The notes: generated by a model from the sequence alone, not told the origin. Shown: positions 9,773 through 50,678, counted from the stretch's first letter. The stretch: 64,000 nucleotides of DNA from Candidatus Limnocylindria bacterium (GCA_035490055.1 DATHIB010000164.1:29380-93379), one strand, 5' to 3'. Translations and numbers: made by a program.

Positions 9773-9881
9773 TCAGTCCGAAGAGCCTGAGATGCAGGGT
9801 CCGAAGCCATCGCTCCAATCGTGAACGACCGGAGTACAGCACACCTCTCCTGTCATGGAAGTGGGGCTCATGGACTTGGAA

Positions 9882-9897
9882 AGCACGCTGTCTGCCA
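9882..9897 (-). promoter_or_regulatory. sigma54-type -24/-12 box for the leftward tailoring operon
   Basis: Minus strand reads TGGCAGACAGCGTGCT (GG-N10-GC), ~110 bp upstream of the 9772 start. Confidence 0.55.
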
Positions 9898-10113
9898 AAG
9901 AGACTTATGTGTCTATGGCATTCATAAGATTGAACTTAACAAAACATTGCAGTCCTAAGCCAATCTTGAATCCAAGTTTGGCGACCTCCTCGACAATCCC
10001 GTGCCTCCATTGGCGCGGGTATGGGGACACTTTACGCCCAGATTTCGCGGTAAGTCCTTCAAATTCAATCCGGCGTAACAAAGTTGCAATCGTCTACACA
10101 GGAAGTTTGACCT

Positions 10114-10129
10114 GGAACAAATATTTCCC
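10114..10129. promoter_or_regulatory. Candidate enhancer palindrome (degenerate GGGAAA-N4-TTTCCC)
   Basis: GGAACA-AATA-TTTCCC, ~138 bp upstream of the sigma54-like box at 10267. Confidence 0.3.
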
Positions 10130-10204
10130 ATGTGAGTAAGTCGTTTCCCTGGAAAAGAAACTGAGATCTCGTGAGACGGTCCACAGGCTACCCATGAGAT
10201 TCTC

Positions 10205-10217
10205 TAAACTATTGACA
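10205..10217 (-). promoter_or_regulatory. IHF-like site
   Basis: Minus strand TGTCAATAGTTTA, one mismatch to WATCARNNNNTTR. Lies between the candidate enhancer and the sigma54 box. Confidence 0.3.
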
Positions 10218-10266
10218 ATAAATATACTTAGAGAGGTCTTAGTACGAGGAATCTTGGATGCCTCTT

Positions 10267-10282
10267 TGGATGGTGAGTTGCT
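10267..10282 (+). promoter_or_regulatory. sigma54-type -24/-12 box for the priming transferase
   Basis: TGGATGGTGAGTTGCT (GG-N10-GC, TTGCT), ~128 bp upstream of 10410. Confidence 0.55.
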
Positions 10283-10409
10283 TTCTTTCCAAACATGGTT
10301 GAGGGGCTGGTGTGCCGTCAGAGGCCCAGTCTCCTTATCAAAGATTCGAAGCGATTGAGAATCAATCTGGCGGAAGCGACGCTACTACCATAGTACCCCA
10401 ACAGAACCC

Positions 10410-11807
10410 ATGCTAAAAATTGGTGGCCAAAAGATTCCGATGACAACCAAAGTACTGATTGTTGGCGATGCATGCCTGATCGCACTCGGTCTTTGCTTGG
10501 CGATTTTGATTCGTTTACATGGTTACCACTCAGTGTTGCACTATCTCCGCCTGCCCGACATGCCCTTTCGATTTGGTATTGTCTTAGCAACATGCGGAAT
10601 ATCTCTCTATTACAATGATCTCTATGCTTCGCGTGTGGTGAATAGGCGCAGCGAGTTGTTTGTTTATCTCTTCCAGGCTGTGGGAACTGCCTGGGTCATT
10701 CTCGCGATTCTGTATTACCTAATCCCGGACCACAGTCTTGGACGGGGCATTGCTGTCCTCTCCGCGCCAACGGTACTCCTGTTCTTGCTGTGCTGGCGCC
10801 TGGTCTTGCTTGAAGCTGACTTTCTCTTGCCAAGACAGCAGCGCGTTCTCGTCGTTGGCACGGGGCCTCTCGGGATTTCTTTGGTTCGTGAGATCCTCCA
10901 CCGTCCTGAACTCCACCTCAAGGTCGTGGGTTTTCTCGATGAGCGTGGAGAGAACATTGGCAAGTCATTAGTCAATCCCGGCATCATTGGTGCGACAAGG
11001 GACCTAGAAGAGATAACCGCTCGGGAAAAGATCGATCGCATCGTGCTTTCCCTCAAAGAGAGGCGCGGTCAGACGCCCTTACGAGAACTCCTGCACCTAA
11101 AGTTCGCCGGCATAGCGGTGGAAGATGCTCACACGGTGAGCGAACAGATTGACGGACGAATTCGTCTGGAGCATTTGTCGCCGAGCTGGATGATCCTGTC
11201 GGAAGGTTTTCGCAAGTCCGCACTCTTGCTCGCCGCAAAGCGCATGTTGGATGTTCTGGTCTCGCTGCTCCTCCTGATCTTTGCCTTGCCAATGATGGGA
11301 ATCGTGGCGCTCGCGATTTGGCTGGAGTCGGGCAGTCCGATGCTCTTCCGTCAGGAACGAATCGGATTGGGCGGACGCCCGTTCCAAATCCTGAAGTTTC
11401 GCTCGATGAAGCACGATGCCGAGGAGCATGGCCCCAAGTGGGCCGCGGATGGCGATCAACGCATCACGCCGGTGGGCCGCATCATCCGCAAACTGCGTCT
11501 CGACGAGCTTCCACAGGTGGTGAACGTACTGCGGGGTGAAATGAGTTTTGTGGGGCCGCGACCTGAGCGAGCGATCTTCTGCCGGATGATCGAGACTGAG
11601 ACGCCATTTTATGCCTTGCGATATTCGGTTCGTCCGGGAATTACGGGCTGGGCCCAAGTGAAGTATCAATACGGGGCCAGCATCGAAGAGGCAAAGACAA
11701 AGCTCGAATACGATCTTTTCTACATCAAACACCTTTCTCTGACGTTGGATCTCGCCATTCTTTTTGAGACCGCGAAAGTTGTATTGTGGCAGCGCGGAGC
11801 GAAATAG
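10410..11807 (+). CDS. Priming undecaprenyl-phosphate sugar transferase (WcaJ/EpsL-type, TIGR03013-like)
   Basis: Four N-terminal TM segments, CoA-binding-like middle (RVLVVGTG), and Bac_transf C-terminus [44 protein letters not shown]. Confidence 0.93.
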
Positions 11808-11867
11808 AGACTCTGGGGCAGGGAACCTGCTGGATTTCAACTCAGTAAAGTTTCGAGGACACAAGAT

Positions 11868-12059
11868 ATGGCCTATCAGAGTCAGCCACGACGCGCCACA
11901 GACACTATGCTGCTTGCGGTTTGGTTCATCGGGTACCACGCGCTGATTCTGTCGTTTGCGGCATTGCAGCGAGTCGAGAGGCTGCTAGCTGGGTCCAAAC
12001 GAGAAGGCCCGAAAGAGGCCGCCGTTCTTGGTCACCGGAGAGAACGATTCGATCTCTAA
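11868..12059 (+). CDS. Possible small membrane protein (63 aa)
   Basis: GAGGA RBS at 11855-11859, 8 nt before the ATG. One hydrophobic segment (MLLAVWFIGYHALILSFAAL). A weak GG-N10-GC box at 11816-11831. Confidence 0.35.
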   Translation: MAYQSQPRRATDTMLLAVWFIGYHALILSFAALQRVERLLAGSKREGPKEAAVLGHRRERFDL

Positions 12060-12125
12060 GGGATTCTCGGTTCTTCGATCTTTAGGAGGGTGGCTTCCCG
12101 AGTCGTGGAGGCGACTTCATAATTC

Positions 12126-12141
12126 GGGAAACTGGTTTCCT
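12126..12141. promoter_or_regulatory. Candidate enhancer palindrome
   Basis: GGGAAA-CTGG-TTTCCT, 71 bp upstream of the sigma54-like box at 12212. Confidence 0.4.
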
Positions 12142-12211
12142 GTGGTGTTGAGCACACCCCGCCGGTGTCCTCTAAATGCCATCGCTTCAACAGATACGGG
12201 CAGAAAAGGTT

Positions 12212-12227
12212 TGGCCGGAACATTGCT
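12212..12227 (+). promoter_or_regulatory. sigma54-type -24/-12 box for wza
   Basis: TGGCCGGAACATTGCT, 35 bp before the TTG start, with a GGAGG RBS between. Confidence 0.6.
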
Positions 12228-12261
12228 CTTGAGCTTACATACTGTGGAACGGAGGTAGCGA

Positions 12262-12981
12262 TTGTCTTCTCGACACTTCATTGGAAGGGTAGCGGTTTCC
12301 CTCTTGTTTAGCTTCCCGGTTTCGGTGCTTCTGGCTTGGCCGTCTGAGAAACTTTCTACAGCGCATCAACAATCATCGCAGTCTGGCCCGAGTCCTACTC
12401 CGGCAGACGACAAGAATGACAAAGATAGAGCCGAAAAACAGCCGGCGGACAAGGCCGCGAAGCCGGAATCTGTACCGCAATCGGCGCTGACTCCCGAACA
12501 GAGACTGACGTATATCATCGGAGTCGAAGACGAACTTCAGATCTCCGTATGGCGCGAGCCGGAACTCTCGACCGTGGTCGTTGTCCGGCCGGACGGAATG
12601 ATCACGCTGCCTCTGGTAAATGATGTGAAGGCGGTGGGATTGAAGACCGAGGAATTGCAGAATGTCCTGATGGACAAGCTCAAGAACTTTGTCAACGAAC
12701 CGCAAGTCACTGTCATCGTTCGAGCTATCCGCAGCCGAAAAGTTTATCTGGTTGGCGAGGTCGGACATCAGGGAACGTATGCTCTCAATGGGGATATGAC
12801 GGCGCTGGAGTTGCTGGCCGTGGCTGGAGGAGTTGGACCTTTTGCAAAAGCGGACTCCATTTATATTCTCCGCGAACAGAATGGCAAAAAGATACGCATC
12901 CCATTCCACTACAAGAAAGCAGTGGCGGGTAAAAGCGAAAACGTAACGCTCGAGCCAGGTGACGTGGTTGTTGTCCCTTGA
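12262..12981 (+). CDS. wza: Polysaccharide export protein (Poly_export + SLBB)
   Basis: Signal-like N-terminus, YIIGVEDELQISVW, VRPDGMITLPLVNDV, LEPGDVVVVP. TTG start after GGAGG. Confidence 0.88.
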   Translation: MSSRHFIGRVAVSLLFSFPVSVLLAWPSEKLSTAHQQSSQSGPSPTPADDKNDKDRAEKQPADKAAKPESVPQSALTPEQRLTYIIGVEDELQISVWREPELSTVVVVRPDGMITLPLVNDVKAVGLKTEELQNVLMDKLKNFVNEPQVTVIVRAIRSRKVYLVGEVGHQGTYALNGDMTALELLAVAGGVGPFAKADSIYILREQNGKKIRIPFHYKKAVAGKSENVTLEPGDVVVVP

Positions 12982-13015
12982 TGGTGTGTTGCCTTAGCCG
13001 AATTCTTCGAGGTGA

Positions 13016-14416
13016 GTGAGAAACATGCAGGACAAGAAACATCTTCGTATCAGCATCTGGCTGATCTTCTTCCCGATCCTTGCGACTTTTTTGCTGCCGA
13101 ATTTGGGATCGGCGCAAGAAGCAGGTCAGGCCACGGGAAAACAAAAGCCTGCTGCACAGGACGCTTCAAAGGATACAGACCGCAAGGATGCCGAGCCCGC
13201 AAGTCCTTACGCGCTGGCCTGGGCGGATTCGTACATCCGGCAAATCGGAACTTCCGGATTATTGGCTGGAAACCGAGAAGGCGTTGGCTGGGGCAGCATT
13301 TACATCCCCTCGGCGGGAGTCAGCGGAATTGTGGACCAGTTTGAGGGAACGAAGACGGCGCCCGGCGCTTCGTATACAGCGACCGTTTTCCAGACTACCG
13401 TGGTCTACGACCACAAGATTGGCACCACCAGGCTTGCGCTCCAATACCAGCCGAGTATGGCTATCGCCCAAGGGCAGGTTGTTGGTAATTTTTCAAATCA
13501 GAATACCAGTTTGGACTGGTTGATTTACACCCGTCCACGATGGAACATAAGATTCAGCGATGGCTTTCGTTACTACTATACCCAGCAGTCGATTGGTTTG
13601 TCGTATCTCGATGTGAACACGGTTACCTCGGGCGTGGCCACCAACAATTTCCTCGATGGGCCCAGTCGTTGGCTCTCGAACAATGCCTATATGTCCGTGG
13701 CGTACGCTTTGTCCAGGCGATCATCGATTGCCATCACTCCGAACTATACTTTTTCAGAGGCTGGAGCGCATGCCAACCTCATCCGCGGTTCGTCCTACGG
13801 CGGCAGTGTGGGTTGGAACTACCGTATGAGCGAGAGGCAGACCGTCGGTATCCAATATACGGGCCAACTTCTCCATGAAGCGGGGCTGGGGACTTCGACG
13901 ACAGGTACGCCGACCGACACAATTTTTCACACCATCGCTGGCACTGCGGGACGCCAAATGAGCGCGACCTTGTTCGCGAGAGGTTCATTAGGTGTCACAA
14001 CTTCTGCGCTGGCTCAGAACACTCGGGAATGGTCTGTTTACGGAACATTCGGATTGGTAAAGCAATTGCGGCGATCTTCGCTGAGTCTCAACTACTCACG
14101 CGGAGACACACTCTCAAACGGATTGATCGCCAATCAATATGCGGATCGCGTCGACCTCACGTACCAAAATCAGATTAGCACCAGACTTAACTGGTCCGCC
14201 GGAGGCGGTTATTTGCGACAGGTTCAATCGGGAGGAGTCGCTGGTTGGTATGCAACATCCAATGTGCAATTTTTGCTGGCGCCCAGAACTGGTCTTTTTG
14301 CCACTTTCGATTATTACCGGAAGAATCAATCAGCGAGCACGACTAGCCTGTTCAGCGGCAATCGGAATATCTATTCTTTCGGACTGCGCTGGCAACCCGG
14401 TCGCGTGGCCAACTAA
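13016..14416 (+). CDS. Outer-membrane beta-barrel protein of the EPS export module
   Basis: Signal peptide, alternating aromatic beta-strands, C-terminal YSFGLRW, position directly after wza. Confidence 0.65.
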   Translation: MRNMQDKKHLRISIWLIFFPILATFLLPNLGSAQEAGQATGKQKPAAQDASKDTDRKDAEPASPYALAWADSYIRQIGTSGLLAGNREGVGWGSIYIPSAGVSGIVDQFEGTKTAPGASYTATVFQTTVVYDHKIGTTRLALQYQPSMAIAQGQVVGNFSNQNTSLDWLIYTRPRWNIRFSDGFRYYYTQQSIGLSYLDVNTVTSGVATNNFLDGPSRWLSNNAYMSVAYALSRRSSIAITPNYTFSEAGAHANLIRGSSYGGSVGWNYRMSERQTVGIQYTGQLLHEAGLGTSTTGTPTDTIFHTIAGTAGRQMSATLFARGSLGVTTSALAQNTREWSVYGTFGLVKQLRRSSLSLNYSRGDTLSNGLIANQYADRVDLTYQNQISTRLNWSAGGGYLRQVQSGGVAGWYATSNVQFLLAPRTGLFATFDYYRKNQSASTTSLFSGNRNIYSFGLRWQPGRVAN

Positions 14417-14562
14417 GTAATTCCCCTAATCTCTGTCGAAAGATGATTTTGCACTCTCATAGTGGCTGCTTGATTGTCAGATCCCATCTCTTCTTGGCTT
14501 CCCGAGCCTAACTAACTCATTCCTTATCTGGAGACAAAGCCTCGGATAGAAGATGGATATAT

Positions 14563-14578
14563 GGGAAATGGGTTTCCC
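14563..14578. promoter_or_regulatory. Candidate enhancer palindrome (perfect)
   Basis: GGGAAA-TGGG-TTTCCC, 112 bp upstream of the sigma54-like box at 14690. Confidence 0.45.
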
Positions 14579-14630: not shown

Positions 14631-14643
14631 TAAGTATATGATA
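14631..14643 (-). promoter_or_regulatory. IHF-like site
   Basis: Minus strand TATCATATACTTA, one mismatch to WATCARNNNNTTR, between the palindrome and the sigma54 box. Confidence 0.3.
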
Positions 14644-14689
14644 ATGGGCTATTTAAATTTAAGGGCAAGAAAGTTCCGCCTCGAATTTC

Positions 14690-14705
14690 TGGAAGACAAC
14701 TTGCT
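14690..14705 (+). promoter_or_regulatory. sigma54-type -24/-12 box for the wzc operon
   Basis: TGGAAGACAACTTGCT, 58 bp before the 14763 start. Confidence 0.6.
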
Positions 14706-14762
14706 AGATGAGTTGTGTCGGAAATTTGTTGACAGAGCGAGCAACCACTTGGAGGAAGATCT

Positions 14763-16331
14763 TTGAACGAGCAACCAGTCTTCACCGCTTCCGGCGATGC
14801 GGCGATTAACGTGCAGATTCGAGAGTACTTAGATCTAGCCCGCCGCCGCAAATTGTGGATTATCCTGCTTACTCTGGGTATCTCGGTCTGTATTGCGGTG
14901 GTGGCGATACGGCTCCCGAGTATCTACCGAGCAGAAACTGTCATTCTGGTCGACCCTCAAAAGGTACCCGACAGCGTCGTTCCGACCAGCGTGAGCGGTA
15001 CTGTCGCCGATCGTCTCTCCACGATCCGCCAGGAAGTCATGTCCCCGACACAGCTCGGGTTGCTGACGAAGGAGATGGGTCTGTATCCCCAACTGCGCGA
15101 CAAGGTGTCCGAACAGGAGCTCGTCTCCCGCATGCAGAAGTCGACGACCATTGAGGTGGTGGACTCTGGGGGACAGCGGCTTAGCGCGTTTCGCATCGCC
15201 TTCACGGACACGGATCAGCATCAAGTGGCGCGCGTTGCCAATCGCCTCGCATCGTTGTTCATCGAGCGGAACCTCAAAGCCCGCCAGCAGCATTTCAACG
15301 GAACGTCCCAGTTCCTCGAAACTGAATTGCAGGAAACGAAACGTCAACTCGAAGAGAAAGAGCACCTTTTGCAGGACGTCAAGAGCCGCTACATCATGGA
15401 TCTACCAGAGTCCAAGCAGTATCACCTGGAAGCCATGAACACCCTTAGGGATCAGTTGCGGAACAGCCAGGATCAAGTGAACCGCGATCGCCAGAGCAAG
15501 GTATATATCCAATCCATGGCAGGGATGTCAGCGCAGACGATCGATCTCGATCAGCAGGCGGGTGCCTCCAAATCTCCTTATCAGGCGCAGTTGCAGAAGT
15601 TGGAACTGCAGCTAAAGGACATGCAGGTTCGCTACGGGCCAAATTATCCGGATGTTCGCAAGTTGCGCAATGAAATCAATCAATTGAAAGCCAAGGCGGA
15701 AAGTGAGAAAACCGCAACAGACGCTCCGGACCCGCAATTGAGTACCCCGACACATCAAGCTCACAATCCAGTGGTAGAAGCCGAAGTAAACAAACTCGAC
15801 CAAGACATCGAGGACCAAACCAAGATCCAGGCTGAACTCGAAAAGCAGATCCAATACCACGTTGGTAAGCTGCAGCAGGTTCCCGTGTTCGAACAACAGA
15901 TCGCCGGGCTGATGCGTGACTACGACACGCTGAGGAACCACTATAACCAGCTCCAGGCCAAGAAGCTGGACGCGGTGATGGCAGGCGAGCTGGAAACGCA
16001 TCAAGCCGGAGAGCGTTTCGAAGTATTGGACCCAGCGATTCCACCCGATGGGCCTGCGGGACCAAGGCGCGGAATCATGATCATCGGTGGCCTGTTTTTC
16101 GGACTGCTGTGTGGAGTTGGTGTGGCTTTCCTCGTCGAGGTCAGCGATGAATCTGTGAGGCACGAGAGGGAAGCGGCGCAAATCTTCGGTAAGCCAGTGC
16201 TCGCTGGAATTCCAATGATCACCAGCGATAAGGAACACGCCTGGGCCCTTTGGCGGATCGCGAGCTTGACGGCCGGCACCGCCGTCGCAGCCGTCGCATT
16301 CGGCCTGGCGATTTCTCGGTTCGTTTCGTAG
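14763..16331 (+). CDS. Polysaccharide co-polymerase / chain-length determinant (membrane part of a split Wzc; TIGR03007-like)
   Basis: N-terminal TM (LWIILLTLGISVCIAVVA), coiled-coil periplasmic region, YGPNYPDV, ERFEVLDPA, C-terminal TMs, no kinase domain. Confidence 0.88.
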   Translation: MNEQPVFTASGDAAINVQIREYLDLARRRKLWIILLTLGISVCIAVVAIRLPSIYRAETVILVDPQKVPDSVVPTSVSGTVADRLSTIRQEVMSPTQLGLLTKEMGLYPQLRDKVSEQELVSRMQKSTTIEVVDSGGQRLSAFRIAFTDTDQHQVARVANRLASLFIERNLKARQQHFNGTSQFLETELQETKRQLEEKEHLLQDVKSRYIMDLPESKQYHLEAMNTLRDQLRNSQDQVNRDRQSKVYIQSMAGMSAQTIDLDQQAGASKSPYQAQLQKLELQLKDMQVRYGPNYPDVRKLRNEINQLKAKAESEKTATDAPDPQLSTPTHQAHNPVVEAEVNKLDQDIEDQTKIQAELEKQIQYHVGKLQQVPVFEQQIAGLMRDYDTLRNHYNQLQAKKLDAVMAGELETHQAGERFEVLDPAIPPDGPAGPRRGIMIIGGLFFGLLCGVGVAFLVEVSDESVRHEREAAQIFGKPVLAGIPMITSDKEHAWALWRIASLTAGTAVAAVAFGLAISRFVS

Positions 16332-18421: not shown

Positions 18422-18682
18422 ATGTATCCAAACTTAAAATTACAACTGTTTCGCAGCGCAGTTCGGCAGAACTTCCTGGCTCGCGAGCTGGGGATCGACG
18501 AGAGCATTCTGAGCAAAATCATTCACGGCTATCGCGAGCCCTCGCCAGAACAGCGGCAGAGGCTTTCCGGCTACCTAGGAGTGGAAGAGTCCTGGTTGTT
18601 TGAAAAGTACGAGAATGCCTCGCCGGCGCGCGCGGCGGGCAATCATGGTTCCCCCCACGGAATGAAAGATGACATCACTTAG
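18422..18682 (+). CDS. XRE-family helix-turn-helix protein
   Basis: QNFLARELGIDESILSKIIHGYREP is a classic XRE HTH pattern. Confidence 0.8.
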   Translation: MYPNLKLQLFRSAVRQNFLARELGIDESILSKIIHGYREPSPEQRQRLSGYLGVEESWLFEKYENASPARAAGNHGSPHGMKDDIT

Positions 18683-24827: not shown

Positions 24828-26052
24828 GCGCACTTCAACAAGCGGGCTCCCCGCTCTTCGGCCCGAAAGCCAGGGCTGGGTGCACGCTTCGATCCCGCGC
24901 AAGCCGCTGTTCGATTGGCGGGAACTCCTCATCAAGGGCATGCACTACAGTGGAGCCTTGAATCTCGCCCGTCGTCTCTCCAAGTCCCATGAAATTCACC
25001 CGCACTCTTCCCTTCCGTTTCCGCGCTTCGAACGCGTCAAGACTCCCAGATTTGTGATCCTGTGCTACCACGGAATTGGCGAGTCCGGAAATCCGCTCTG
25101 CGCTGCGCTCACCCGCGAACTCTTCGAAACGCAAATGCGTTTCCTGCGCGAGAATTATCGGGTAGTTTCCCTCGATGAAGCGTGTCGTGAATTACGCAGC
25201 GGCGCGAAGCCCGAGCCCGGAGTCGCTATTACCTTTGACGACGGCTATCGCAGCGCCTACACCGTAGCCTTTCCGATTCTGCAAAGGTACCGCCTGCCGG
25301 CCACGGTTTATTTGACTATCGAGCCCGTCGAGACCGGCCAGGTTGCCTGGTATGACCGCGTTTTCCTGGCCATGGCTGTGGCCCCCAGCGGCGAACTCAA
25401 GCTCAACCTCCAGGGCCCCTGGCTTTTCCAGGTGAATTCCCCGGAGGATCGCTTGCGCGCGGCTCTAGAAGTAGTTGCCTTCCTGCGTACACTTCCCAAT
25501 TCACAGCGTCGCGAGTGCTGCGCCTTACTGGAGAATAAGATTGGTCTGCCTCAAAATAAGCTCTCCAGCCGCGTTTTGACATGGGATGAGATTCACACCA
25601 TGCACCAGGCGGGAATTGCCTTTGGCTCGCACACCCTCACCCATCCGGTGGTGAGCCAGTTGGCGCCTCAGGAATTGGAGCAGGAGCTTGGCGCCTCCAA
25701 ACGCCTTCTTGAGAAAATGCTGGGAATTCCCGTCCTGGATTTTGCGTTTCCCTTCGGCAAAGCTTCCGATTGCAGCAGCGCAGCCCTCGATATGCTTGCG
25801 CGCTGCGGATATCGTTCCGCCGCAACCACCGTTCCCGGCGCGAATACTCCCCAGGTCAATCTTTTCGAACTGCGCCGCTTGCAAGTCGGCTTGGATGGCT
25901 CACTCGCCCGTTTTGCCTTCGATCTTGGCCGGGCGTTTCTGTGCGCCGAAGAGCTTCGTGCGTTGAACGTTTCGCCGGCCGGTTCTTACAGTGCTCAAGA
26001 AGTTCCCATCCCGGTCGGCATGGGCGGCGCATTGGGAGACTCCGATGCGTGA
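24811..26052 (+). CDS. Polysaccharide deacetylase (NodB/CE4)
   Basis: ITFDDGY, GSHTLTHP, FAFPFG. Confidence 0.87.
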   Translation: MFVRIERTSTSGLPALRPESQGWVHASIPRKPLFDWRELLIKGMHYSGALNLARRLSKSHEIHPHSSLPFPRFERVKTPRFVILCYHGIGESGNPLCAALTRELFETQMRFLRENYRVVSLDEACRELRSGAKPEPGVAITFDDGYRSAYTVAFPILQRYRLPATVYLTIEPVETGQVAWYDRVFLAMAVAPSGELKLNLQGPWLFQVNSPEDRLRAALEVVAFLRTLPNSQRRECCALLENKIGLPQNKLSSRVLTWDEIHTMHQAGIAFGSHTLTHPVVSQLAPQELEQELGASKRLLEKMLGIPVLDFAFPFGKASDCSSAALDMLARCGYRSAATTVPGANTPQVNLFELRRLQVGLDGSLARFAFDLGRAFLCAEELRALNVSPAGSYSAQEVPIPVGMGGALGDSDA

Positions 26053-27394
26053 CCTGATTCTGTTCATTATCATCGCGATCTCCATCCCGATCAGCTTTTT
26101 TCGGCCCTACTTCGGGATTTTGATCTGGACGTGGATTACATTCTTTAACCCACATCGATACACGTGGGGTTTCATGTATAACTTCCCGGTGGCGGCGGTC
26201 ATTGCCGTGCCCACTCTGATCGGCTGTCTGTTTACTTCCAACATCAACAAGCAGTTTCTGAAGCGGGAAACATTTTTACTGGCTGTCCTGTGGATCTGGT
26301 TTTGCATCACCTTTTTCTATGCGATGCAGGTCCCATTCTTTCAGGGACATATCCTGGACGCGAAGCTGGAGTGGGTGAGAGTCAGCAAAGTCCTGTTAAT
26401 CACATTCACTATGATTTTGTTGGTCACTTCGCACCAGAGATTGAAGTCTCTTGTCATGGTTACGGCATTGAGCTTTGGAGCCCTGGCCGTCAAAGGCGCG
26501 ATCTTCGGAGTTCGTACCGGCGGAGAGGCTCGCGTCTGGGGACCGCCGGATTCTTTCATTGCTGACAACAACTCATTTGCCCTGGCCGTCAATATGTCTC
26601 TTCCGATGCTCTTTTTCCTCGCGCGCGATGAGAAAACGCGCACTTACCGATGGCTTCTGCATTTAGCTTTTGCTTGCGGAGTTCTCTCCGTGGTGCTCAC
26701 TTATTCGCGCGGCGGCCTGCTCGGACTGGCCGCGGTGCTCCTCGCGATCACGTTTAAGTCGCGGTATAAACTTGTTGGCGTTTTTCTGGTGGCCTTATCT
26801 TTTGCCGCCGTGATCACTTTCGCGCCGCCCCAATGGATGAATCGTATGGGAGGGCTTGTCCGCGGCGATGTGGACATGTCCGGTCACCAGCGGCTCGTGT
26901 CTTGGGGAACTTCCTGGAATTTTGCAATGGACTACCCCGTCACCGGCGGTTCCTTCAATGCGCTTCCGGATGTCGAGATTTTCCAGCGTTACCAGAATGA
27001 GCCGTTGCCAGGAGGCTTCCTCTCTTCCGGTCCCCATAGCATTTATTTTCAGATCCTCGAAGAGCAGGGTTTCGTTGGGCTCGCGCTTTATCTCAGTCTC
27101 GTCGCCAGTTGCTGGGCAAGTCTGCTCGGCTTGCGGCGCCGCTCCGGACGTTCGCCTTCTAGCCGGTGGATCGTTCCCTATACCCATATGATCGAAGTCT
27201 CTCTTTTCGGTTTTCTGGTGAGCGGCGCATTTTTGGGTTTAGCCAATTTCGATCTTTTTTATCAGCTCGTCGCCATGGTCATCATTCTCAAAATGCTCTA
27301 TCGCTCCGAGACTCCGGTAGCGGCTCCCGTTCGTGCGGAGGAAACGGAGCCTATCAAAGTAGCGGAGGAATCGTTGATCGCTCGGGAAGCCTGA
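26045..27394 (+). CDS. O-antigen ligase/polymerase-family membrane protein (TIGR03097-like O-glycosylation ligase)
   Basis: Multi-TM, DNNSFAL, TYSRGGLLGL, HSIYFQILEEQGFVGL. Start at ATG 26045 (MRDLILF). Confidence 0.85.
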   Translation: MRDLILFIIIAISIPISFFRPYFGILIWTWITFFNPHRYTWGFMYNFPVAAVIAVPTLIGCLFTSNINKQFLKRETFLLAVLWIWFCITFFYAMQVPFFQGHILDAKLEWVRVSKVLLITFTMILLVTSHQRLKSLVMVTALSFGALAVKGAIFGVRTGGEARVWGPPDSFIADNNSFALAVNMSLPMLFFLARDEKTRTYRWLLHLAFACGVLSVVLTYSRGGLLGLAAVLLAITFKSRYKLVGVFLVALSFAAVITFAPPQWMNRMGGLVRGDVDMSGHQRLVSWGTSWNFAMDYPVTGGSFNALPDVEIFQRYQNEPLPGGFLSSGPHSIYFQILEEQGFVGLALYLSLVASCWASLLGLRRRSGRSPSSRWIVPYTHMIEVSLFGFLVSGAFLGLANFDLFYQLVAMVIILKMLYRSETPVAAPVRAEETEPIKVAEESLIAREA

Positions 27395-33253: not shown

Positions 33254-33572
33254 TTCGTTCCCGGAGGGACATCAAATTCGATCGCCCTGATACTTCCTAA
33301 AATTGCGAACGGTGGCATCACGACACCTTTTCGTTCCGTACTAGCGAGACTAGCATATTCGGACTGAGCCTTGACGAGGCTGCCGAGCCGGATCTTCCTC
33401 GCGACGCTATTTTCAGTCAGATCCCCGCACACCCGAGAAGGAAGTTGTTTTCTTATACTCTTCCAGATTGTGCTAAAAGATCCGCAGTTTCTTCGCTGGC
33501 GGCGCAAGCATCATTTCAATATCTTTTTTGTTTACAATCACTTATGGGCCTAGCCGGCTCTAGACCACCTCA

Positions 33573-33588
33573 TGGAAGGCCAATTGCA
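33573..33588 (+). promoter_or_regulatory. sigma54-type box for the deacetylase
   Basis: TGGAAGGCCAATTGCA. Confidence 0.55.
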
Positions 33589-34721: not shown

Positions 34722-35149
34722 ATCAAGAATTGCATACGACCTCGCGCAAGGAGAGGAGTGCGCAATAGACAGAAAAGAAATAGGATACTTCAAAATTAAG
34801 AATAGGGTTGGGAATTGCCCCCGGAGAGGGCCGCAAATTCTGCGATGACTGGCAGTGCTCCCTAGCAGCAATTATGGCGCACAGGAATGCGAAGTCAAAG
34901 ATCACTCCAGCCATGTAGAGGCGAATTTGCCTCGACGGTGAAGCACCGGAAAGGGATTGCGACTCGAGAAGGCGGGGGTAGAGGCGGGATTCCTGCGCCA
35001 GGTCTCGGACGGTGGCGAGCGAGTGAAAATGGGTGCCGCTAAGGGGAAAGCGGTTGGACGTATCCTTTTGGAGTCCGCCTGGTAATTTGAGCGAATTTTC
35101 CTAAGTCCATATTATACAATGGTTTAGAATGTGCGAGACGAGGACCTGC

Positions 35150-49957: not shown

Positions 49958-50636
49958 GCAGAGCCACGTTTCAAGACTGCTTTGAGGCGTTGCCACGACT
50001 TCGCTAACTAAGCGCATCCCTGAGAACTCCCTGCAGCGCGCTCTGGAAGTGGAATACAGGAATTCGCCATTCTGTTTCCCGCGAGTTCCACTGCCCTCGT
50101 GTAAAGTCCATGTTAACATCCTCTTTTTCAATAAGTTACGAAGAGTCATCTTTGGCTGACAAGTTGCACCGCATAGGGTGTGCATATCATCCTAGCATCA
50201 CTCTCAAACCTTCCCGAGACCATGGGGCTATTCCTAATTGGGCTTGTACTGATTCTTTCCGGTGTAGTGCTTCGCCGCGTATTCTTGACCTTCGAAACCG
50301 CAATACCCGCGCCAGCTCGGAGCTCAGAGTCGAACGAGCATCCCCTGAAGTAGCAAAACTCCTTCTTCTTTCCGATAGCTTTAGGAAAAAGCGCAACGGG
50401 AACATCTTTGCTGGGCGAAGCTGCCCATAGATTTAAGGAAAATTCTAATTCTGTGGAACGATCGGCAGAATCTGCTTGATTCGAAGCGTTTTTTTATCAG
50501 ATTGAAAGATCAACGCAGACTTCAATCCGTACATTAGCCCGTCTGCCCCATTTTATGGAAGCGGCCTGCACAATGATGCCCGTGAGTTTCTCTCGAACCT
50601 TGCGAGGGTGTTTTGGACCATGGCTAAGTCCAAATG

Positions 50637-50649
50637 AATCAATGAATTG
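50637..50649 (+). promoter_or_regulatory. IHF consensus site
   Basis: AATCAATGAATTG is an exact match to WATCARNNNNTTR, 14 bp upstream of a sigma54-like box. Confidence 0.45.
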
Positions 50650-50662
50650 GTCTTGCTGAATT

Positions 50663-50678
50663 TGGAAGGCGGGGTGCT
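50663..50678 (+). promoter_or_regulatory. sigma54-type box for the giant IPT protein
   Basis: TGGAAGGCGGGGTGCT. Confidence 0.5.

Follow-up and report, generated by a model that had tools for sequence, protein, structure and literature searches.

A conserved GGGAAA-N4-TTTCCC palindrome as candidate enhancer of sigma-54 promoters in the exopolysaccharide locus of a soil acidobacterium

Introduction

The DNA analyzed here, a window of 64,000 bp (C164:29380-93379), belongs to the 5.9-Mb genome of a soil acidobacterium (Terriglobia), which is available as 211 contigs. According to family profiles, the window carries a large exopolysaccharide locus of the XrtA/PEP-CTERM type. At its head lie the genes for the priming glycosyltransferase EpsB_2, an export protein, a probable outer-membrane protein and a chain-length determinant, the latter being followed by genes for an ATPase, a tyrosine kinase, FemAB, glycosyltransferases and amidotransferases and by further genes (Table 1). 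The palindrome GGGAAA-N4-TTTCCC (core GGAAA-N4-TTTCC) recurs upstream of these genes. Here we report that this palindrome likely represents the enhancer of sigma-54 promoters heading the assembly/export operons, and we propose a candidate for the activator that would bind it.

Members of the Acidobacteriota rank with the most abundant bacteria of soils, where their slime polysaccharides are of importance for aggregation and carbon. To our knowledge, almost nothing is known about the regulation of acidobacterial polysaccharides, because most lineages of the phylum are uncultured. Our full-text search of the literature for the motif string retrieved no paper, and reports dealing with the control of polysaccharide genes by sigma-54 in Acidobacteria were not found either.

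Results

A preceding reading of the window from its sequence alone (hereafter the sequence-only reading) had listed three copies of the palindrome: a perfect one at 14563, one with a single mismatch at 12126 and a degenerate one at 10114, here designated sites C, B and A1, respectively. Positions and mismatch grades proved correct, and so did the gaps of 112, 71 and 138 bp that separate sites C, B and A1 from TGG-N8-TTGC boxes at 14690, 12212 and 10267. In site A1 the arms are spaced one base wider than in the other two sites.

Orthologous spacers were compared using the syntenic genomes G013 and G003 (83% and 44% protein identity, respectively) and a sample of 67 soil-metagenome loci with 60-98% identity, which after removal of duplicates provided 53 distinct aligned spacers for site C, 36 for site B and 22-28 for the divergent spacer containing site A1. 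The sequence-only reading had made its interpretation dependent on conservation of the motif in such spacers. Indeed, conservation of the arms amounts to 0.90-0.98 compared with 0.53-0.68 for the spacer background (Mann-Whitney p between 1e-3 and 2e-5). The arms of site C reach 0.97/0.98 against a background of 0.53, those of site B 0.95/0.90 against 0.68, with the central N4 at background level, and those of site A1 0.94/0.90 against 0.62. Invariant GGAAA and TTTCC words are surrounded by diverse N4 and flanking sequences. Moreover, the distances between palindrome and box are held though the intervening sequence drifts: they measure 125-129 bp for site C (32 of 34 spacers), 84 bp for site B (32 of 33) and 152-154 bp for the A site (15 of 17). 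No other conserved candidate enhancer was detectable in the aligned orthologues of the 12126 and 14563 spacers.

The boxes themselves are conserved as well. Four of them, i.e. 10266, 12211 and 14689 on the plus strand and 9882 on the minus strand, exhibit the exact 10-base spacing between GG and GC, lie upstream of genes and are conserved to 0.91-1.00. At the 14689 promoter, the -24 and -12 elements reach 0.95/0.96 and the bases between them 0.71. The genome carries rpoN (C146:76266), and the search for NtrC-like genes proposed in the sequence-only reading retrieved 15 proteins with a Sigma54_activat domain. That reading had furthermore placed an IHF-like site (YAA-N4-TTGAnA) between palindrome and box in two cases; such sites are present in the 10114 and 14563 spacers, and both are conserved. 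Three DNABII genes were found in the genome, two of which score best to IHF models, though below the cut-offs of these models. Taken together, the conservation, the fixed distances, the -24/-12 boxes, the IHF-like sites and the weakness of the predicted hairpins (see below) argue for protein-binding enhancer sites of sigma-54 promoters; the conserved arms, boxes and distances and the presence of rpoN and activators lend support to the earlier interpretation of the palindrome as a putative activator binding site.

The divergent spacer between the EpsB_2 gene and the GNAT-led operon (9773-10409) deserves separate description. It contains one conserved block, 10113-10160, which holds two sites, A1 and A2, whose centers are 20 bp apart. 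This block is flanked by two conserved sigma-54 promoters arranged back-to-back, 10266(+) and 9882(-).

Two elements of different kind were noted in addition. A 63-aa open reading frame (ORF), MAYQSQPRR...WFIGYHALIL..., occupies 11868-12059 on the plus strand between the glycosyltransferase gene and site B; it is kept in G013, G003 and the metagenome spacers, has the look of a small membrane protein and lacks a Pfam match. The element GTCGGAAATTTGTTGACAG (14717-14735) is located right where the transcript of the 14690 promoter is expected to start; it is 0.90 conserved (p=1e-9), contains GGAAA-N4-TTGAC and may represent part of a leader RNA or an additional protein site.

We also determined how often the palindrome occurs. 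When up to two mismatches are allowed, the window contains 6 matches where 3.6 would be expected; the same number was attained in 10 of 100 shuffles, so that the count is not above chance. Raw counts alone are accordingly no proof of significance, which is provided by the genomic context, i.e. an intergenic position plus a box. In the whole genome, 31 matches with at most one mismatch were found, 7 of which are intergenic, and in this class a TGG-N8-TTGC box within 300 bp accompanies only the two window copies, as revealed by the genome-wide co-occurrence scan that the sequence-only reading had called for. Neither the mismatch scan nor a weight matrix detected further strong copies in the genome. 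Core copies with one mismatch combined with a loose sigma-54 pattern performed no better than control patterns genome-wide; only exact cores and conservation are informative. Two candidates were discarded: a copy at C111:34019 with a TTGGCAC box 140 bp off has no convincing downstream gene, and a sigma-54-like box at 26291 with the two-mismatch copy GGGAAACATTTTTACT 26 bp upstream (26265-26306) is probably a chance pair inside an O-ligase-like gene, since the TIGR03097 match begins at residue 20 of the ORF starting at 25991.

Next, we turn to the candidate binder. A region of the same contig that lies 16 to 11 kb upstream of the window harbors a regulator cassette, which comprises genes for GGDEF, PilZ and CBS proteins, a histidine kinase, an NtrC-type response regulator and a second, receiver-less sigma-54 activator (Table 1). 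The PilZ genes and the GGDEF gene link the cassette to cyclic di-GMP signalling. The kinase/response-regulator operon (C164:12940-15666) is located 28 kb upstream on this contig. In G013 and G003, synteny with the polysaccharide locus is observed for the gene order GGDEF / kinase, response-regulator activator, (CBS), receiver-less activator, and in most genomes of the genus as well as in another family of the order the cassette resides 2-10 kb from a chain-length-determinant homologue. We know of no description of this acidobacterial cassette (kinase, response-regulator activator, CBS, receiver-less activator, PilZ/GGDEF operon).

In all 18 genus genomes examined, the start codon of the kinase gene is preceded at a distance of 35-52 bp by GGAAA-N4-TTTCC or GGAAA-N4-TTACC. 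Another, weaker copy by the kinase operon adjoins a conserved TTGACA, which suggests a sigma-70-type promoter for the kinase. In most of the 18 genomes, a conserved sigma-54 box is found on the minus strand 180-205 bp away, and this promoter is directed towards a PilZ gene followed by the GGDEF gene. The kinase-proximal site is also kept in G005 (96% complete) and G017, both of which are devoid of the receiver-less activator. Just downstream of the minus-strand promoter, a genus-invariant direct repeat, TAGTAC-N8-TAGTAC (C164:12676-12695), could serve as operator for another regulator.

The helix-turn-helix of the response regulator does not differ by a single letter within the genus, and the GAFTGA loop of this protein is intact. 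Its closest solved structures are the Aquifex NtrC-family proteins 4l4u and 1ny5; when compared with NCBIfam, it reached no equivalog cut-off. The gene of the receiver-less activator is preceded genus-wide by a sigma-54 box and by degenerate GGAAA..TTTCC-like sites. The sigma-54-contact loop of this protein reads GSFTDA here, GAFTDA in G013, G026, G001 and G010, and GAFTGA in other genomes of the genus. The sequence-only reading had assigned the palindrome to an unknown activator. Its activator-site part is supported, but the activator need not stay unknown, as throughout the genus the core palindrome is found next to the operon encoding the syntenic NtrC-type response regulator. This location, together with the genome distribution, makes the response regulator the best candidate, and on balance we favor it as the presumptive binder. 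It probably also drives the PilZ/diguanylate-cyclase operon and the gene of the second activator.

Table 1. Features of the exopolysaccharide locus and of the regulator cassette. Positions refer to the window unless prefixed with C164.
Feature	Position	Strand	Sequence	Remarks
Candidate activator site C	14563-14578		GGGAAATGGGTTTCCC	Perfect palindrome, 0 mismatches; upstream of chain-length-determinant operon
Candidate activator site B	12126-12141		GGGAAACTGGTTTCCT	1 mismatch; upstream of export-protein/outer-membrane-protein operon
Candidate activator site A1	10114-10129		GGAACAAATATTTCCC	2 mismatches; GGAAC-N5-TTTCC
Candidate activator site A2	10134-10149		GAGTAAGTCGTTTCCC	
Conserved extension after A2	10134-10160 (A2 + extension)		TGGAAAAGAAA	Conservation 0.93/0.92/0.97 and 0.84
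Weak copy	33439-33454		AGGAAGTTGTTTTCTT	Precedes the sigma-54 box at 33573 (gene for polysaccharide deacetylase) by 133 bp
IHF-like bend site	14631-14645	-	TAAGTATATGATAAT	One mismatch to WATCAANNNNTTR on reverse strand; mean 0.76 vs 0.53, p=1e-5 (metagenome set); also kept in three genomes
IHF-like site	10205-10219	-	TAAACTATTGACAAT	Between A sites and plus-strand promoter; 0.78 vs 0.62, p=1e-4
Sigma-54 promoter	14689-14705	+	CTGGAAGACAACTTGCT	-24 GG / -12 GC; operon start 14763 (chain-length determinant, ATPase, tyrosine kinase and further genes)
Sigma-54 promoter	12211-12227	+	TTGGCCGGAACATTGCT	Operon start 12262; elements 0.95/0.96 conserved
Sigma-54 promoter	10266-10282	+	TTGGATGGTGAGTTGCT	EpsB_2 gene; -24 element 1.00, -12 element 0.96
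Divergent sigma-54 promoter	9882-9898	-	TTGGCAGACAGCGTGCT (reverse complement)	Operon start 9772; 0.91 conserved, p=1e-9
Priming glycosyltransferase EpsB_2	10410-11807			TIGR03013 family match
Export protein	12262-12981			TIGR03027 family match
Probable outer-membrane protein	13016-14416			No family match
Chain-length determinant	14763-16331			TIGR03007 family match
GNAT-led operon	Start 9772	-		Pfam
Small XRE-type helix-turn-helix protein	18422-18682			Within locus; HTH_3 domain
GGDEF (diguanylate-cyclase) gene	Cassette on C164	-		
PilZ gene	C164:~12330-12680	-		Pfam PilZ, 36.8 bits
Histidine kinase	C164:12940-14169			HisKA/HATPase_c
NtrC-type response regulator	C164:14185-15666			Pfam Response_reg, Sigma54_activat, HTH_8
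PilZ gene	C164:16096-16430	+		Pfam PilZ, 42.3 bits
CBS gene	Cassette on C164			
Receiver-less sigma-54 activator	C164:17307-18431			About 11 kb upstream of window start

Discussion

From sequence conservation, promoter geometry, synteny and genome distribution, we infer binding to the palindrome, activation of the promoters and the identity of the binder. Our proposal that GGAAA-N4-TTTCC is the core of a sigma-54 enhancer includes the case that both activators bind it. By analogy with the NtrC family, an activator dimer would contact each palindrome through its Fis-type helix-turn-helix, and the active protein would assemble into an ATPase ring. Bending of the intervening DNA, for which two of the three spacers provide an IHF-like site, would allow the ring to remodel the RNA polymerase that is held with sigma-54 at the -24/-12 box. 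Sites A1 and A2 of the divergent spacer could serve both back-to-back promoters. The most likely activator would be the response regulator, composed of receiver, AAA+ and HTH_8 domains and encoded together with its histidine kinase, and from the kinase-proximal palindrome it would additionally activate the divergent sigma-54 promoter of the PilZ and diguanylate-cyclase operon. As degenerate copies precede the sigma-54 promoter of the receiver-less activator, a two-tier cascade may exist. Tentatively, and with the odds rather against it, one may go further and regard this one response regulator with its genus-invariant DNA-binding domain as a master switch of matrix production, which through GGAAA-N4-TTTCC would repress its own sigma-70-type promoter, activate the PilZ/diguanylate-cyclase operon and thereby cyclic di-GMP signalling, activate the second activator and act directly on the assembly/export promoters. 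Such a switch would constitute a sigma-54 cascade with two tiers, which parallels the proteobacterial PrsK/PrsR system but is independent of it.

Some observations weigh against this proposal. The weight matrix scores the two window copies at 28.1 and 24.7 bits and the next best match, which is intragenic, at 20.4 bits, but this ranking arises partly by construction, because the matrix was trained on these very sites and their orthologues. Genes outside the window were called with a crude caller of our own, which overlooked the two PilZ genes of the cassette. The arm spacing varies, being wider in A1 and one base closer in the G003 counterpart of site C, while the DNA-binding domain of the regulator remains unchanged, which is awkward for a rigid dimer. 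The absence of the receiver-less activator from genomes retaining the kinase-proximal site is firmly based on one nearly complete genome. Finally, the recognition helices of the receiver-less activator (ISYRALIYKI) and the response regulator (ISYKALLYKM) are much alike, so that the former could bind the same word.

Given this similarity and the sigma-54 box and sites of its own gene, a cascade or shared binding is possible. In its strict form, the receiver-less activator would bind the palindromes at the polysaccharide promoters, and the response regulator would only switch on the gene of the former, which would be inducible in this manner and subsequently autoregulate. Such a scheme is compatible with the position of this gene in the same conserved cassette, where it is usually the one nearest to the polysaccharide genes. 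Nonetheless, we consider it unlikely, since the core palindrome by the kinase operon persists in the two genomes lacking the gene, and since the contact loop of the protein deviates from GAFTGA in the present genome. It is simpler to assume a single motif and a single, invariant DNA-binding domain that reads it. Alternatively, the palindromes could be operators of the small XRE-type protein encoded in the locus, acting as co-regulator or repressor, with the true enhancer elsewhere. Binding of short palindromes by dimers is common among small XRE proteins, and the gene is found in G000, G013 and G003, the three genomes with this version of the locus, and in G024. With a distribution limited to four genomes this protein cannot explain a genus-wide site, and many genomes devoid of it contain the same core word next to the kinase operon and at promoters of polysaccharide genes. 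Moreover, sites that precede the boxes by 84-154 bp and are separated from them by a bend site have the geometry of an enhancer rather than an operator, and an enhancer elsewhere finds no conserved candidate in the 12126 and 14563 spacers. We therefore judge this alternative very improbable.

Even less probable is a reading in which the palindromes have no protein-binding role but are chance matches, hairpins in RNA or terminators belonging to the genes upstream. It is true that the window count is unremarkable at up to two mismatches and that a 6-bp stem can form. However, hairpin stability is low (-6.5 to -9.6 kcal/mol; z-scores +0.9 and -1.4) with no T-run following, the arms are conserved as sequence beyond mere pairing, and their position is fixed relative to the downstream box and not to the upstream stop codon.

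The enhancer proposed here resembles a system described in Proteobacteria. Haft et al. 2006 (PMC1569441) reported a cis-regulatory region for PEP-CTERM genes together with PrsK/PrsR/PrsT, the motif being found only in Proteobacteria, and RpoN dependence of a PEP-CTERM gene has been described in Aquincola (PMC9850573). Both here and in the PrsK/PrsR/PrsT system, an upstream activator motif is followed by a sigma-54 -24/-12 motif and is tied to an exosortase/PEP-CTERM polysaccharide system, and the predicted binder is an NtrC-family response regulator paired with a histidine kinase. However, the motif is a 16-bp palindrome here and, in Haft et al. (PMC1569441), a 17-nt motif ending in TTTACA. 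The spacing is 71-138 bp as opposed to a mean of 63 in the PEP-CTERM regulon (PMC1569441), and the targets are operons for polysaccharide biosynthesis and export plus cyclic di-GMP genes instead of single PEP-CTERM protein genes. The PrsR model TIGR02915 yielded 428.8 bits for the best protein of the genome and 374 bits for the candidate regulator at a cut-off of 502.6, i.e. no equivalog, and the best match to the PrsK model TIGR02916 scored 104 bits against a cut-off of 300, the kinase core alone being aligned. Located downstream of the sites are the genes for EpsB_2, the export protein and the chain-length determinant as well as the GNAT-led operon; at these site-bearing promoters, to which the comparison of targets was confined, the genes are not those of PEP-CTERM-tailed proteins. 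At the level of predicted proteins and sites, membership in the PEP-CTERM box regulon fails on regulator family, kinase family, motif and target genes alike.

In the paradigmatic cases of NtrC at glnA/glnL and of NifA, IHF and sigma-54 at nifH, the activators occupy inverted repeats about 100-150 bp upstream. The present locus shares with them the inverted-repeat sites upstream, presumably for dimers, the tandem sites two helical turns apart and, if its IHF-like sites are functional, the IHF-assisted looping; likewise, the site by the regulator's own operon would overlap a sigma-70-like promoter while activating a sigma-54 promoter. In contrast, the recognition words differ (TGCACC-N5-GGTGCA for NtrC, TGT-N10-ACA for NifA), and the output is matrix polysaccharide and cyclic di-GMP rather than nitrogen. 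Control of exopolysaccharide genes by sigma-54 activators and cascades of such activators also occur in other bacteria, an example being EpsI/Nla24 of Myxococcus xanthus. There, too, genes for NtrC-like activators are found in the vicinity of polysaccharide loci, and one activator may drive another; the likeness considered here is at family level, and the binding words are not comparable. As a general theme, sigma-54 is said, in work by Francke et al. from 2011, to be a controller of the cell exterior.

While the enhancer mechanism is textbook knowledge, the motif and the assignment of its likely regulator are new, and both can be named here for the first time in this group. They supply a concrete 16-bp candidate binding word and a named candidate regulator with its kinase. 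The predicted regulon is small and delimited, consisting of four to six promoters of one polysaccharide locus, the cyclic di-GMP operon and the second activator gene, and the predictions can be checked with synthetic DNA and recombinant protein although the organism is uncultured. Finally, the sigma-54 logic of the proteobacterial PEP-CTERM systems would have an independent counterpart in another phylum.

Further sigma-54-like promoters

According to the sequence-only reading, no clear copy of the palindrome precedes the other five sigma-54-like boxes of the window, which was taken as a hint at a sub-regulon or a second activator. This claim held in part; at least two of the five do have a weak copy upstream. 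One of the five, 9882(-), shares the 10114-10160 block with the EpsB_2 promoter, and a weak copy precedes the 33573 box (Table 1). Upstream of the 35150 box the window indeed contains only a decayed remnant, but the matching position of the closest relative, G013, is occupied by a perfect copy of the core, which precedes the corresponding box by 171 bp. Another conserved block with GAAAA and GGGAAA half-words lies at 35021-35051 in the window. For the weak copy, G013 has AGGAAACTGTCTTCCA at the same 133-bp distance (two genomes compared). The 33573, 35150 and 50663 promoters were compared in 2-4 genomes only, G061 being not syntenic at 33573. The split between boxes with and without palindrome is thus less sharp than previously stated, and as to the suggested second activator, one is present in the cassette.

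Polysaccharide promoters of more distantly related genomes display the word with the same geometry. In G038, which belongs to a different family within the order, a pair of N4 sites spaced by 20 bp precedes a sigma-54 promoter, whose operon comprises the second activator gene and polysaccharide genes. G001 has an N4 site and a sigma-54 box between the second activator and the PEP-CTERM ATPase gene, and at the equivalent place of G026 the N3 copy GGAAAGCTTTTCC is found 131 bp before a TGG-N8-TTGC box.

The promoter of a giant surface-protein gene (box 50661-50678) is equipped with a perfect IHF consensus, AATCAATGAATTG, at 50637-50649. Upstream of this 50663 promoter, a different element, TGGAAGCGGCCTGCACAATGATG (50556-50578), is conserved in the one relative compared and may be the site of another activator. 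A further sigma-54-like box, TTTGGCTGACAAGTTGCA (50153), is kept in G061, as is the 43-aa hydrophobic ORF that follows it at 50222-50353, which has no Pfam match.

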